From: Alphaproteobacteria bacterium
Lineage (GTDB): Bacteria > Pseudomonadota > Alphaproteobacteria > Bin95
Reading direction: 5' to 3'
Assembly (NCBI GenBank): GCA_965205265.1
Contig: CBDBGH010000003.1
Location: 1,184,001 to 1,248,000 of the forward strand
DNA: 64,000 bases
A model generated the notes under the pieces. It saw only the letters and a list, made by a program, of their open reading frames with translations, searched no databases and had not been told where the DNA came from. This document shows, in pieces, positions 20,940-40,335 of this stretch (position 1 is the first letter of the stretch; each line of letters opens with the position of its first letter). The position numbers and the translations under genes are program-made.

Positions 20940-21002
20940 GTTCATTTATTTTTGAAATAATTCATTTGAAGAGGACTGCTCTCGGAAAATCTGTGTTATT
21001 AT
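20940..21002 (+). promoter_or_regulatory. AT-rich promoter-like region with extended -10 (TG-n-TATTAT) upstream of long repeat copy A
   Basis: TG at 20994-20995 and TATTAT at 20997-21002, preceded by an AT tract in a GC-rich background. Confidence 0.5.
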
Positions 21003-21671
21003 GTGTGCAGGAGGAAGGAGGCGGCATTCGCGAGGCCGCTTCGTTTCGCCTTTCGCGCTGGCGCGAAAAGCCCCCGATTCGGCCAACAGGCGAAGTGCGC
21101 CCCGCGTCCGGCTCGCGCGCGCGGGCGCATCCGGGCAATCAGGCGCGCAAACCGCGCCGGCGCGAAACGCCCGCCCACGGGCGCGGGCGCCCGCGCAGGA
21201 TACGCGCGAATCAGGGTCCGCCGCTTCGGGGAACCGGGCGATGGAGGGAGTGGAACGAGGTGGAACAAAACGAGGTGAAGGAACGACATGCAGGATTGCG
21301 AAAACAGGGTTTCGGCGGAGCGGGCCTTTGCCCCCCTTTCGTCGTCCCCGCGAAGGCGGGGACCCGGCCTTGGCTCCCGATGCCGCCGCGGCCGATGGAG
21401 AGGAGACCGGGCTGCCGGGGCTGCCGCAAGAACCGGGGCTGGGTTCGGGGCCGGGGCGTCCCCCGCTTTCGCGAGGGCAGGCGGTTGGGGGCATGCAAGG
21501 CAACGCCACCGCACGGAGATGTTCGAATCCAGTAGCCCGCAGGCGGGGGAGGGAGGCAAGCTGCGGCTTCATGCCTGAACCGGCTACAGGATATGAACTC
21601 TCGGCATGCAAAACATGACATCGCATGACACACCGCAGGGGAGTCCGCCGGGCGCGCATGACGAAACATGA

Positions 21672-21919
21672 GGGGCTTATATGGATAGGTTGACAACAGG
21701 TTTGGGAGGCTTCGCACCTTCTCTCCGGCGTCCAACCCGCCCCCATATCGTCATACCCGGACTTGTTCCGGGTATCCATGCGGCCGTCCGGCGGCAGCGG
21801 TGGAGAGAGATACCCGGAACAAGTCCGGGTATGACGGAGGGGACGTGACGGAGGGGGCGTTGAGGTATGACGGAAGAAATGTCGTCGGTCTCCCCCGTCA
21901 ACCTATCTTTGTAATCTCC
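21672..21919. mobile_element. 248-bp MITE (IS1595/IS1016-like ends) with 8-bp TSD and an internal REP
   Basis: TIRs GGGGCTTATATGGATAGGTTGAC / GGAGATTACAAAGATAGGTTGAC (rc); AAACATGA duplicated at 21664-21671 and 21920-21927. Confidence 0.8.
21749..21836. repeat. REP-like palindromic element, copy 3 (inside the MITE)
   Basis: CGTCATACCCGGACTTGTTCCGGGTATCCA ... ATACCCGGAACAAGTCCGGGTATGACG. Confidence 0.85.
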
Positions 21920-21950
21920 AAACATGACATTTCGAGCGCCAGGCTAACTG

Positions 21951-22045
21951 GTGTGGGGGTAGCGGGTGAAAGTCCTGCGGAACGAAGGAGTAGCCGACCG
22001 CGTTCCTCCGCGAGCCGTGCATTGTCGGTCGTGAGGCCGGGCGGC
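21951..22045 (+). mobile_element. Probable 5' remnant (domain I start) of a bacterial group II intron
   Basis: GTGTG start, then GGGTGAAAGTCC...CGAAGGAGTAGCCGACC...CGAGCCGTGC...GTCGGTCGTGAGGCCG, recalled as typical group II intron 5' sequence; no RT ORF or domain V follows. Confidence 0.55.
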
Positions 22046-22140
22046 TGTCGGCGCGCAACACCGTCGGCGCGCGGCAAGTGGGCATGCGGGGCCGTCCGGG
22101 GTAAAGTCGGCCGGTGCGGCACGGATGCGGGGGGTCCTGC

Positions 22141-37846: not shown

Positions 37847-38685
37847 CCGACAAAGACGACAACAACACCGCGCTCGACCCCAACAAGATCGACGCCATGA
37901 AGCTCTCCTTGATGCTTGCCGAGCTCCGCCTGCCGACGATCAGACAACTCTGGCAGAGCTTCGCCAAGCGGGCCGACAAGGAAGGATGGACCGCGGCTCG
38001 CTTCCTCGCGGCCCTGGCTGAACACGAACTCGCCGAACGCGACCGGCGGCGCATCGAGCGCCACCTCAGGGAGGCCAAGCTGCTTCCGGGCAAGACGCTT
38101 GCCTCCTTCGACTTCAACGTCGTGCCGATGATCTCGAAGGCCCAGGTCAGCGCGCTGGCCGCCGGCGACGCCTGGCTCAGCCAGGGCGCCAACTGCCTGA
38201 TCTTCGGACCGCCAGGGGCCGGCAAGAGCCATCTCGCCTCCGCCATTGGCCTGGCCCTGGTTGAGAGCGGATACCGTGTGCTGTTCACCAGGACCACCGA
38301 TCTCGTGCAGCGCATGCAGGTTGCAAGGCGCGAGCTTGCACTGGAAAGCCTGTTGGCGCGGCTCGACCGCTTCAACCTCCTGATCCTCGACGACCTCGCC
38401 TATGTGCGGAAGGACCAGGCCGAGACCGGCGTGCTCTTCGAACTCATCTCGGCGCGCTACGAGCGGCGATCCCTGCTCATCACCGCAAACCAGCCCTTCG
38501 GCGAGTGGGGAAAGGTGTTCCCGGACGAAACAACCGCGGTGGCTGCCGTCGACCGCCTCGTCCACCACGCCACCATCCTCGAGATGAACGTCGAGAGCTA
38601 CCGCCGCCGCGCCGCTCTCGACAGAGGCAAGCGAAAGGCCGGCCGGCCGCCAAGCTACGCAACCGAGAAAAACACCAAGGACTGA
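37843..38685 (+). CDS. istB: IS21 ATPase IstB
   Basis: GPPGAGKS Walker A, LLILDD Walker B, DRLVHH. Confidence 0.96.
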
Positions 38686-39562
38686 GCCGCCGCCTGCTCA
38701 GGTAGAGCGGCCACGACAATCAGGGCCCGCGGGGATCGTCTCCGCGCGCCGTCTCTTCTCCGACCCGACGGCCTGCCGCGACAATCAAAACCATTCCCGA
38801 AAACACTGTTTGTCGCGCCGCGACAATCAAAACCGGAAACCGCTTGCAATCCACCCCCCGCGCGGCAATCATCAACTCGCCGCTGCCGCCGGGAATCTCA
38901 TCCTGATTGACGCGCAGCTCTCACCCAGATTGTCGCGCCATAGTGCCGCTTGCGAGCTTCGCCAGCCTGACCGAGCCGCTGACGGACGCGCAGGCGGCGA
39001 TGCTCGGCGGGGAGGGAGAGTTCGGCTTGCTGCCCGCCCACCCGAACGGGAGCACGGTCCGCCTCACGCGGGACCGCCGCATCCTCATGCGCAACACGCT
39101 CTGGTATGCGCGCGGGAAACGCTTCCCGCCGGCGCTGATGGAGCGCGTAGCCGATATCCACCGCCGCAGCATCGAGGCGCGCTGGCCCGCGCTCGGGGAC
39201 ATCGCTTTCGCCGGCACCTGGGGCGGCATACTCGGCTTCACGCGCAATGAAGGCGCCATCTTCGGCCCGGTCCGGGAGGGGCTCTGGGCGCTCATGTCCT
39301 GCGACGCCGCGCCGATGACCAAGGGGGCCATCGGCGGCAAATTGCTCGCCGACCATATCTGCGGGGAGGACAGCGAACTGCTGCAGGTCGTGCTGTCGCT
39401 CCCGCGCGCCGCGCTCCTGCCGCCCGACCCGATCCTGCGCTTCGTGGTCAACCGCCGGGTCAGCCGCTTCGCCGCCTCTGGCGCCGCCGAGCGTTAGGGA
39501 ACCGCCGCGGCGCGGTCCCGGCCGCACGCCGGCCGGATGCCCTGGGTCCCGGCTGCCGGGGA

Positions 39563-40277
39563 CGTCATGCGATGTCATGTTTCGTCATGAGGCGCCGTGA
39601 GCCTTCCCCGCCATATGTCATGGGATGTCATGTTTTGCATGCGAGTGGCGCATATCCTGTAGTCCTTTCTGGCATGAGGCTGCCGTCCGTCTCCCTCCCT
39701 CGCCTGTGAGGGAGGACCGCATGCGCACATCTCCGGAAGCCCCGGACGGCTCCCCCTTCGTCGCCCCGGCCTCGATCCGGGGCCTTGTGCGGTCGGAGCT
39801 CGGTTGCAGGGAGGCCTCGGCTCGCCCTGCGGGCGTCCGGGACGACGAAGGGAGCGCGCAGACCGCCGCAGCCGGACCGGCGAGGCGCTGTTGCGGACGG
39901 GAATGAGATGTGTGAATCCGGTAACCTGCAAGCGGGAGAGGCCCGTTTGCGGCCACAGGCCCGTCCTGCTGAAGCTGTATTCGTTTGCCTCCCGCATGTC
40001 GTTCCTCCACCTCGTTTCGTTCCACTCCGTTCCATCCTTACCGCCGCCGGTCTGCCCGGGTAGCGGGACCTTGATTCGCGCGTATCCTGCGCGGGCGCCC
40101 CCGCCCGCGGGCGGGCGTTTCGCGCCGGCGCGGTTCGCGCGCCTGATTGCCCGGATGCGCCCGCGCGCGCGAACCGGGCGCAGGGCGCACCTCGCCAGTT
40201 GGCCGAATCGGGGGCTTTTCGCGCCGACGCGAAAGAGCAGGGGAAGCGGCCCCGCGAGCGCCGCCTCCTTCCTCCTG
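39563..40277 (-). repeat. Long dispersed element, copy B
   Basis: Reverse-strand homolog of 21008-21930 with the same 5' multi-hairpin block and 3' CATGAC repeats. Confidence 0.8.
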
Positions 40278-40280
40278 GAC

Positions 40281-40335
40281 CATGTAGGGAAGAGGGAGAC
40301 GATGTCAATACTATTTCAAGAAATTTTTCTGTATT
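40281..40335 (-). promoter_or_regulatory. Sigma70-like promoter upstream of repeat copy B
   Basis: Minus strand TTGACA (40308-40303), 16 nt, TACATG (40286-40281), with an A/T tract upstream. Confidence 0.55.

Follow-up and report, generated by a model that had tools for sequence, protein, structure and literature searches.

Two inverted repeats of an alphaproteobacterial genome are probably relics of a genus-wide family of promoter-bearing DNA cassettes

In a 64-kb stretch of an alphaproteobacterial genome (G000:C3:1184001-1248000, hereafter the window, with positions counted from its first letter), two segments on opposite strands, copy A starting at 20937 and copy B at 40346, share a GC-rich 5' block and a 3' block around middles that have nothing in common. 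What kind of object has left these two copies? An earlier reading made from the sequence alone saw in them a transcribed structured RNA or long leader, or a non-autonomous element family that had spread through the genome. Here we find that both segments, which have lost their open reading frame (ORF), probably belong as decayed copies to a family of small promoter-bearing DNA cassettes that extends across the genus, and that the 5' block is best read, from its place between promoter and gene in intact relatives, as the messenger RNA leader of the cassette.

A genus-wide repeat family

The source genome (G000) comprises 5.7 Mb in three contigs. A DNA query retrieved 41 matches from it, and a profile of promoter plus leader gave 84 nhmmer matches, all on contig C3, 70 of which are near-full copies that cover at least 250 of the 406 model positions, with the overlap of the contig ends discounted. 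The same DNA query found matches in 15 of 16 congeners, 13 of those with many. Outside the genus it matched none of the 24 genomes searched, of which 8 belong to the same family and 16 to other families of the class. Overall identity between copies is only 72-86%. When the whole 1.27-kb unit of the gene-bearing type described below was compared by blastn in distant mode with phage and plasmid collections, no match was obtained, and no such cassette was described in the literature as covered by search listings and abstract openings. The repeat family is real and uncatalogued: the sequence-only reading did not recognise it as a known family, and the Rfam, phage, plasmid and literature searches agree. 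Its proposals that the family is multicopy and that a non-autonomous element had been amplified across the genome are likewise supported by the ~70 copies.

The two ends of contig C3 carry identical matches ~5,371,000 bases apart (for instance 42282/5413274 and 51909/5422967), within its first and last ~90 kb. They overlap as in an untrimmed circular assembly, which may add to the 7.28% 'contamination' figure of this genome.

The anatomy of the unit was derived from aligned upstream flanks of 27 copies and from 14 compact copies aligned end to end. A full unit measures 0.55-1.3 kb and consists of TTGTTC, a promoter, a 230-290-nt GC-rich leader, a ribosome-binding site (RBS) with an ORF, and CATGACA direct repeats. 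The promoter region reads, in order, TTGTTC, a GAAAtATTTC near-palindrome, cTTGACA, a spacer and an extended -10 element TGnTAnnnT, followed by the GC-rich block. Among the 64 copies that cover the promoter, exact TTGACA stands at the aligned -35 position in 34, TGnTAnnnT in 41 and the left-end TGTTC in 36. By this alignment, the predicted AT-rich sigma-70 promoter is part of the element. At the right end, CATGACA is directly repeated two to five times at intervals of 10-11 nt, about one helical turn, and in the compact copies this 3' block follows only 30-130 nt past the RBS and ATG. From base composition, ~0.04 occurrences of the motif CATGACAnnnCATGA[CG] per strand are expected; the genome has 134, grouped into 87 clusters, and for 78 of these a leader lies on the same strand no more than 2.5 kb upstream. 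An exact copy of the repeat is retained at 63 of the 70 leaders in spite of the low overall identity.

The two copies in the window

The 5' arms of the window pair (21005-21295 and 39990-40280) form an inverted repeat of 291 nt that is 85% complementary in the window repeat comparison, and the 3' arms (21540-21671 and 39575-39706) form a second inverted pair of 132 nt at 75% identity. The middles of the two copies give no significant alignment to each other; each holds a different nested repeat with ~12-16 genomic occurrences. The three-part, inverted build described earlier is thus recovered, together with its non-homologous middles holding different REP-like (repetitive extragenic palindrome) hairpins. 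The idea that the element collects REPs and miniature inverted-repeat transposable elements (MITEs) also holds, with REP, MITE and insertion sequence (IS) insertions nested in copies. The parts of the two copies are as follows.

Copy A, plus strand
20937..21008, +, left end and promoter region (alignment of 27 upstream flanks, column counts on 64 copies)
20937-20943, +, left-end motif TTTGTTC
20954-20963, +, near-palindrome GAAATAATTC
20976-20981, +, decayed -35 position CTGCT(C); no full promoter in the scan
20994-20995 and 20997-21002, +, extended -10 element, TG and TATTAT
21009..21287, +, GC-rich leader, the 5' block (291-nt arm, 105-sequence alignment, fold z +0.28)
21018-21042, +, 5' hairpin
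21135-21158, +, near-invariant core GCAATCAGGCGCGCAAACCGCGCC
21278..21290, +, purine-rich RBS-like tract and ATG (21288-21290)
21297..21538, +, middle: nested REP-like insert with a long hairpin (~12-16 genomic copies, unalignable to the middle of copy B)
21539..21671, +, 3' block (132-nt arm, family alignment, motif statistics)
21614-21620 and 21624-21630, +, CATGACA repeats at 10-nt spacing
21657-21663 and 21667-21671, +, degenerate repeats, the latter cut by the MITE
21672..21919, +, MITE of 248 nt inside the right end, a separate family (at least 10 copies at 91-99.6% identity)

Copy B, minus strand
40279..40346, -, left end and promoter region (flank alignment, column counts); no full promoter in the scan
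40344-40339, -, left-end motif TCGTTC
40329-40320, -, GAAAAATTTC
40308-40303, -, perfect -35 element TTGACA
40286-40281, -, decayed -10 position TACATG
39998..40278, -, GC-rich leader (291-nt arm, fold z -0.13)
39707..39997, -, ATG (39997-39995) and middle with a different nested repeat
39563..39706, -, 3' block (132-nt arm, family alignment, motif statistics)
39632-39626, 39622-39616; 39589-39583, 39579-39573, 39569-39563, -, five CATGAC(A/G) repeats in two sets at 10-nt spacing

A promoter scan passed no site in either copy. Copy A has lost its -35 element (CTGCT) and retained TGtTATTAT, while copy B has retained TTGACA and reads TACATG/ACATGG at the -10 position. A sigma70-like -10 just 5' of the block, claimed for both copies, is therefore present in copy A as an extended -10 and decayed in copy B, so that each keeps half a promoter. 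Nor do the promoters differ in origin, as had been supposed: by the flank alignment and column counts both are diverged versions of one conserved, element-borne promoter. The block does end at a purine-rich RBS-like tract followed by ATG, after which the copies diverge as the sequence-only reading stated. The ORF that follows the ATG has 96 aa in copy A, where it reads into the inserted repeats, and 140 aa in copy B; neither is conserved. Judged by the damaged promoter in each, the lack of a conserved ORF and the nested REP and MITE inserts, the window copies are relics.

The MITE at 21672-21919 holds an inner palindromic unit of ~88 nt (~21749-21836) that is present in hundreds of copies on both strands; its weak matches to Rfam microRNA models reflect the hairpin only. 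A duplicate of copy A lies at C3:1393130-1393745. It is 97% identical over 620 nt, including the nested middle, and has a different 5' end, a mosaic that by its sequence is a sign of recombination between copies.

Intact copies encode a TerS-like or a 195-aa protein

An ORF scan downstream of the RBS revealed two multi-copy genes, whose full-length representatives, seven TerS-like (phage terminase small subunit) and nine of a 195-aa type, make up 16 intact copies. The remaining copies, both window copies included, hold short or unconserved ORFs only. The absence of a recognisable protein, as originally noted, is thus true of the window pair and not of the family. Mini-ORFs of 31 and 41 aa were rejected as real peptides: they read the same conserved 3' block in two frames (...ACKS* and ...HADHDIS*), so that the DNA and not the peptide is conserved, and they run into the CATGACA repeats as the TerS-like ORF does.

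The seven TerS-type copies are 92-99% identical over ~1.25 kb and stand in unrelated contexts. Their boundaries are sharp, with homology from (A)TTGTTC to CATGACAtttCATGACAtccCATGACAcg, the CATGACAcg end. The ORF encodes 303 aa and has its stop inside the CATGACA repeats (...PDHDIS*). Residues 11-87 match the Pfam family Terminase_2 with 50.7 bits (cut-off 26.1, E 3.7e-13), and the protein matches terminase-small-subunit PHROGs, including PHROG 51. Its AlphaFold model has an overall pLDDT of 65.4, with 89-96 per 10-residue block over residues 11-60, and the central region is predicted to be helical. The top PDB entries found by Foldseek are 4zc3 and 2cmp (SF6 G1P DNA-binding domain), with TM scores of 0.85/0.82, 38-39% identity and a probability of 1.00; the E-values are weak (0.09-0.13) because the domain has only ~55 residues. 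From sequence and model together, the N-terminal domain of the 303-aa protein is a predicted TerS DNA-binding helix-turn-helix (HTH). The dN/dS ratio of the ORF has a median of 0.34 over 135 pairs from several genomes (0.25 for codons 1-200, 0.50 for the tail), and the protein is therefore under purifying selection. In an alignment with distant relatives, the first ~195 residues are conserved and the acidic tail is variable.

The seven element copies are the only Terminase_2 matches in the source genome. This genome is 98.98% complete and has no match to the large terminase families PF03237, PF03354 and PF04466 or to the HK97 capsid family PF05065, for which controls matched in known genomes; the TerS-like gene is therefore an orphan. 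A resident prophage or gene transfer agent as user of the protein was rejected on the same lack of large terminase (TerL) and HK97 capsid matches.

The TerS-like family is found in 12 of the 16 congeners, with 2-16 matches each. Genomes of sister genera hold single weak N-terminal matches in 2 of 10 cases, and 10 other genomes hold none. In a species-representative collection there are 79 loci with TerS-like relatives, all in uncultured Alphaproteobacteria or 'Rhodospirillaceae' metagenome-assembled genomes, several of them sponge-named. The leader lies directly upstream at 51 of the 79 loci. It is lacking at 22 more distant loci (34-60% protein identity), of which the two inspected, L131 and L138, have short AT-rich 5' untranslated regions (UTRs). 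Pairs of CATGACA 10 nt apart are present at or after the ORF end in 6 of these 22 leaderless loci (52-60% protein identity). Since the repeats are kept where the leader is absent, the gene-plus-repeat module would be the older part and the GC-rich leader a genus-specific addition. The longer distant proteins, at L138 and its relatives, contain internal degenerate peptides encoded by the repeats (MTNPDISLH..., TDHDISLH...); in these ORFs it looks as if translation had come to run through the repeat cluster, with duplication of the cluster within the gene.

The second gene is present in about ten copies that are 88-94% identical, nine of them full-length, and its 195-aa product is unrelated to the TerS-like ORF. 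It is multi-copy in 14 of the 16 congeners and occurs in none of the 24 other genomes. The protein has no Pfam match above cut-off, no PADLOC or NCBIfam match and no TerS-like similarity, and its Atlas scores do not exceed 0.85.

A conserved leader between promoter and gene

In the 16 intact copies the GC-rich block has the promoter on one side and, on the other, the RBS of a real ORF. Of the two possibilities first raised for it, the long leader is the better one, and the free-standing multi-stem RNA is not supported. An alignment of 105 distinct leaders has 20 invariant columns. A near-invariant core, GCAATCAGGCGCGC(G/A)AACCGCGCC, and a tract, ACGCGCGAA.CAGGGTC, recur across three ORF types and about 12 genomes. 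Such conservation, at this position between promoter and RBS, leaves some room for a reading compatible with the cassette, namely that the leader is a cis-regulatory RNA (an operator, attenuator or riboswitch-like element) that gates translation of the ORF. We regard this as a tentative possibility. The core helices never vary and so give no covariation evidence for it, and the distant TerS-like relatives do without a leader, which is therefore genus-specific and not essential to the module.

Filled and empty sites in related genomes

Orthologous sites without the element, which the sequence-only reading had suggested seeking in relatives, were found in three congeners. The site of the TerS-type unit C3:1474671-1475930 is filled in G005 and empty in G014, where 89 nt instead of 1480 nt separate the same two genes. 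The C3:4474478 site is likewise empty in two congeners, with 96 nt in G007 and 128 nt in G012 in place of 1383 nt. The site of copy A holds an element in G016, G002 and G004, and none was found there in G014, G005 and G007; the genes that flank it (window 19900-23200) are not adjacent in any relative examined: in G008, for instance, ~53 kb separate them, and in G005 they lie on two replicons. The same lack of synteny in relatives is seen at two other cassette sites, and cassettes may mark rearrangement breakpoints.

At the place of copy A, G015 carries a mini-unit of ~150 nt that consists only of the promoter, the first hairpin and three CATGACA repeats. In its sequence this is the pattern of an internal deletion that preserves cis-acting ends, and we infer that the ORF-less copies in general are deletion derivatives. 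At this locus (L063, G015:C1:3508400-3510400) the mini-unit lies ~90-250 nt past the stop of a gene and is followed in tandem by a second, full unit.

Weighing the cassette reading

Compared with MITEs and other IS derivatives, the family has the dispersed copies and the presence/absence pattern, and has neither terminal inverted repeats (TIRs) nor a longer relative that encodes a transposase. This and several further observations weigh against the reading as a mobile cassette. No inverted repetition links the left end (TTGTTC...) with the right end (...CATGACAcg), as judged by eye on the aligned family ends with no within-copy repeat search, in keeping with the earlier remark that TIRs are missing. 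No direct repeat that could be a target site duplication (TSD) flanks the seven TerS-type copies, and in both filled/empty comparisons the spacers are too diverged for the junctions to be placed, so that no target sequence or duplication can be read. The term 'mobile' therefore draws on copy number and on presence/absence only. No transposase was identified: the longer relatives with the same ends encode the TerS-like or the 195-aa protein and match no transposase family. Among HUH transposases, the source genome has no match to Y1_Tnp (PF01797) and a single fragment of Y2_Tnp (PF04986), covering 40 of 183 positions and containing a stop. The 195-aa copies share the unit ends without a TerS-like gene, and the TerS-like protein is therefore not a universal cis-encoded factor. 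No catalytic motif is evident in the TerS-like alignment; residues past ~200 are variable there and of low confidence in the structure model, and the protein has no PADLOC or NCBIfam match. The sub-lineage of the window copies (RBS...ATGCAGGA) has no intact master in the source genome, and the leader core is more conserved than a plain UTR needs.

Transcription of the cassette is likewise an inference. The RNA data were Logan contigs from three metatranscriptome runs and one guessed-RNA run, and contigs give no 5' ends; in run X1 the depth is 434 over the core and ~5-20 over flanking genes, an excess explained by the ~70 paralogous copies, and run X10 contributed nothing.

Two sources of a transposase in trans were considered and rejected. 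An HUH partner (IS200/IS605, IS91) fails with no Y1 and only a broken Y2 fragment, and an autonomous partner among the unusually long copies fails as their extra DNA consists of nested IS elements, which from their ORF starts are presumably IS21-, IS4- and IS110-like. The genome is rich in IS elements, among them a two-ORF element in ~34 copies and an element with a 551-aa ORF in ~62 (from their ORF starts, we take these to be IS21-like and IS4/IS1634-like, respectively), an IS110-like ORF, and an element with a 594-aa ORF in ~20 copies. Several are nested in cassette copies. The loci on which these observations were made are L166, L167 and L168 (G000:C3:2709300-2713700, 3850900-3856400 and 2141100-2146200).

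Might the family then not be mobile at all, but a product of gene conversion and segmental duplication that drift has preserved in the IS-rich genome of a symbiont? The missing transposase, TIRs and TSDs would fit this, as would the mosaic at C3:1393130, 97% identical to copy A over 620 nt with another 5' end, which is what recombination gives, and the non-syntenic flanks of copy A and two other copies. Against it stand the sharp unit boundaries common to seven copies in unrelated contexts, the ~70 dispersed single units, the orthologous sites that are empty in other species, and the terminal repeats, which 63 of 70 copies still have although the remaining sequence diverges by 14-28%. On balance we consider an immobile family quite unlikely.

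Folding and covariation of the leader

The evidence that the 5' block is a structured RNA is weak. Rfam gave no match at gathering score anywhere in the 64-kb window, so that the family match that might have contradicted the sequence-only reading did not appear; with E-values up to 10, the 5' block is empty except for a chance match to CRISPR-DR29 (E 9.4). The minimum free energy (MFE) of the block lies at the level of 200 dinucleotide shuffles, with z +0.28 for copy A and -0.13 for copy B; 118 and 85 of the 200 shuffles, respectively, reach an equal or lower energy. For 31 copies, RNAalifold arrives at -29.5 kcal/mol; its covariation term is -0.3, and only 4 of 37 pairs show compensatory change. 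In a RIBOSUM-scored consensus of the 105 leaders, 86.0% of cells are paired as against 84.8% when partners are shuffled, and 19 pairs are changed on both sides as against 20.1. Double-change cells (98 versus 66) and the covariation score (0.116 versus 0.101) do lie above all shuffles, a result that relatedness alone can produce.

The individual stems behave differently from one another. The first hairpin, GAGGCGGC/GCCGCTTC, is paired in 86.8% of cells and changed on both sides in 5 of 8 pairs. The second is partly kept (68.7% paired for inner and 28% for outer pairs), and part of it shows compensatory change. The GTGCGCCC/GGGCGCAT stem pairs where it is present, its 3' side being deleted in 50-66 of the 105 sequences, and GGCGCG/CGCGCC is invariant and hence uninformative. 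The long-range GATTCG/CGAATC helix, said to close a multibranch junction, is not conserved, with only 57.6% of cells paired. In the covariation analysis advised at the outset, compensatory change is seen in the first hairpin and part of the second only. The statement that stems are kept while loops vary is right in so far as the listed stems are present in both copies and the first hairpin covaries, and fails in that the fold as a whole is no better than composition gives.

A free-standing family of small structured RNAs, driven by the promoter and with the multi-stem fold as its functional product, would account for the conserved element-borne promoter, the compensatory changes in the 5' hairpin, the 20 invariant columns and the many copies without a long ORF. 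We find this account very doubtful. No Rfam family is matched, and the folding energy, whole-structure pairing, double-change pairs and alifold covariation term all stand as given above; about half of the copies lack one stem, and 42% of the cells in the closing helix do not pair. Moreover, the block always ends in RBS and ATG and precedes real ORFs in the 16 intact copies, and there is no intrinsic terminator after it in either window copy. In the seven TerS-type copies (21 pairs), promoter and leader also diverge faster (Jukes-Cantor distance 0.035-0.176) than third codon positions (0.007-0.085). As a caution for annotation, composition alone can make GC-rich repeats look like 'structured RNA'.

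It is hardly credible that the family is a non-autonomous IS110/IS1111 element with the leader as its bridge (seek) RNA and a DEDD recombinase acting in trans, which would explain a promoter-led RNA without TIRs or TSDs and agrees with the long non-coding 5' region after the promoter and with a putative IS110-like transposase ORF elsewhere in the genome, so named from its N-terminal sequence: we rejected it, as the leader has no match or complement of at least 6 nt to the right-end/left-end junction in six TerS-type copies, no DEDD gene is linked to any copy, Rfam gave no match, and the promoter is complete within one end, whereas that of IS110 is split across the end junction.

A working model and its relation to known systems

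In the cassette model that we prefer, the transcript would start at the element promoter and carry the GC-rich block as leader before the ORF. The first hairpin is most likely a 5'-terminal mRNA stem-loop. In the near-invariant core it would be the primary sequence that is conserved, like that of a site bound by a protein or the ribosome, and not a set of covarying helices. For the CATGACA repeats, the most likely role is that of a binding site for the TerS-like protein and also of a site required in cis for copying. This suggestion draws on sequence and analogy: repeats and gene are co-conserved beyond the genus, the spacing is one helical turn, and small terminases bind repeated boxes at pac/cos.

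Several known systems resemble parts of the cassette. Like the Correia elements of Neisseria and the enterobacterial ERIC and RU elements, it has dozens of dispersed, intergenic, non-autonomous copies with promoter or structure motifs and nested insertions. Those elements are transcribed with their neighbours, measure 100-170 bp and have terminal inverted repeats and target duplications. The cassette, in contrast, measures 550-1300 bp and has no TIR and no visible TSD; its sigma-70 promoter is complete and is followed by a 280-nt leader and an RBS, to which the master copies add a conserved gene. With phage TerS (Terminase_2; SF6/SPP1 G1P) it shares the N-terminal HTH, above the Pfam cut-off, its fold and the helical central region that follows; and pac sites, which lie in or beside terS, have a counterpart in the short direct repeats at one-turn spacing at the gene itself. 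It differs from phage TerS in that no large terminase, portal or HK97 capsid gene adjoins it or is found genome-wide, in its seven intact copies and ~60 relics, each with its own promoter and long leader, and in the long, acidic, variable tail of the protein.

The TerS of satellite islands (SaPI, staphylococcal pathogenicity islands; PICI, phage-inducible chromosomal islands) is a further likeness, as a chromosomal terS homologue without terL that could act only with a terminase in trans. SaPI/PICI redirect helper-phage packaging and are islands of 5-15 kb, one or two per genome, with integrase, replication and regulation genes; the cassette is 1.25 kb, multicopy and without an integrase. Lastly, 5'-terminal stem-loops of the ompA type are mRNA stabilisers, and the cassette resembles them in a conserved hairpin with compensatory changes in the first ~35 nt of the predicted transcript. 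The cassette hairpin, whose function is putative, differs in that it precedes ~240 nt more of conserved GC-rich leader.

A bolder extension, which we offer as unlikely, is that the family forms a self-contained 'TerS plus pac-site' module at ~70 chromosomal sites in a bacterium without packaging machinery. The TerS-like protein would bind the CATGACA repeats that close its own gene and there capture the large terminase of an infecting phage. Phage packaging would then be sabotaged, as a decoy defence, or else headful packaging would start from many origins and take up host DNA, a built-in lateral transduction. Gene-less copies such as the window pair would then be relics of binding site plus promoter, and the GC-rich leader would silence the gene until infection.

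If the cassette reading is right, ~1% of these symbiont genomes (by our estimate from ~70 units of 0.55-1.3 kb in 5.7 Mb) would consist of a cassette unlike catalogued insertion sequences or MITEs, with its own strong promoter and with neither inverted ends nor a recognisable transposase, and with master copies that hold an orphan gene, under purifying selection, for a protein related to one of phage packaging. It would be a tractable case for how such elements copy themselves, with the TerS-like protein and the CATGACA repeats as a candidate protein-DNA pair. The ~70 portable promoters may also drive neighbouring genes and mark rearrangement breakpoints between species.

Minor observations around copy A

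A terminator-like hairpin at 20906-20943 lies 3' of the upstream gene, and its T-rich tail merges into the TTTGTTC left end of the element. Several other copies have a hairpin or the motif GGATCGGAAA just 5' of TTGTTC, and the true left boundary may be further out. Beyond the MITE, positions 21920-22041 hold a repeat of ~122 nt. It has many copies in congeners at 93-97% identity, frequently located at the ends of contigs, and 5 copies at 76% in the source genome. A sub-threshold Rfam match to group-II-D1D4-6 at 21969-22084 (26.3 bits, gathering score 49) is probably the fragment of a group II intron 5' end.

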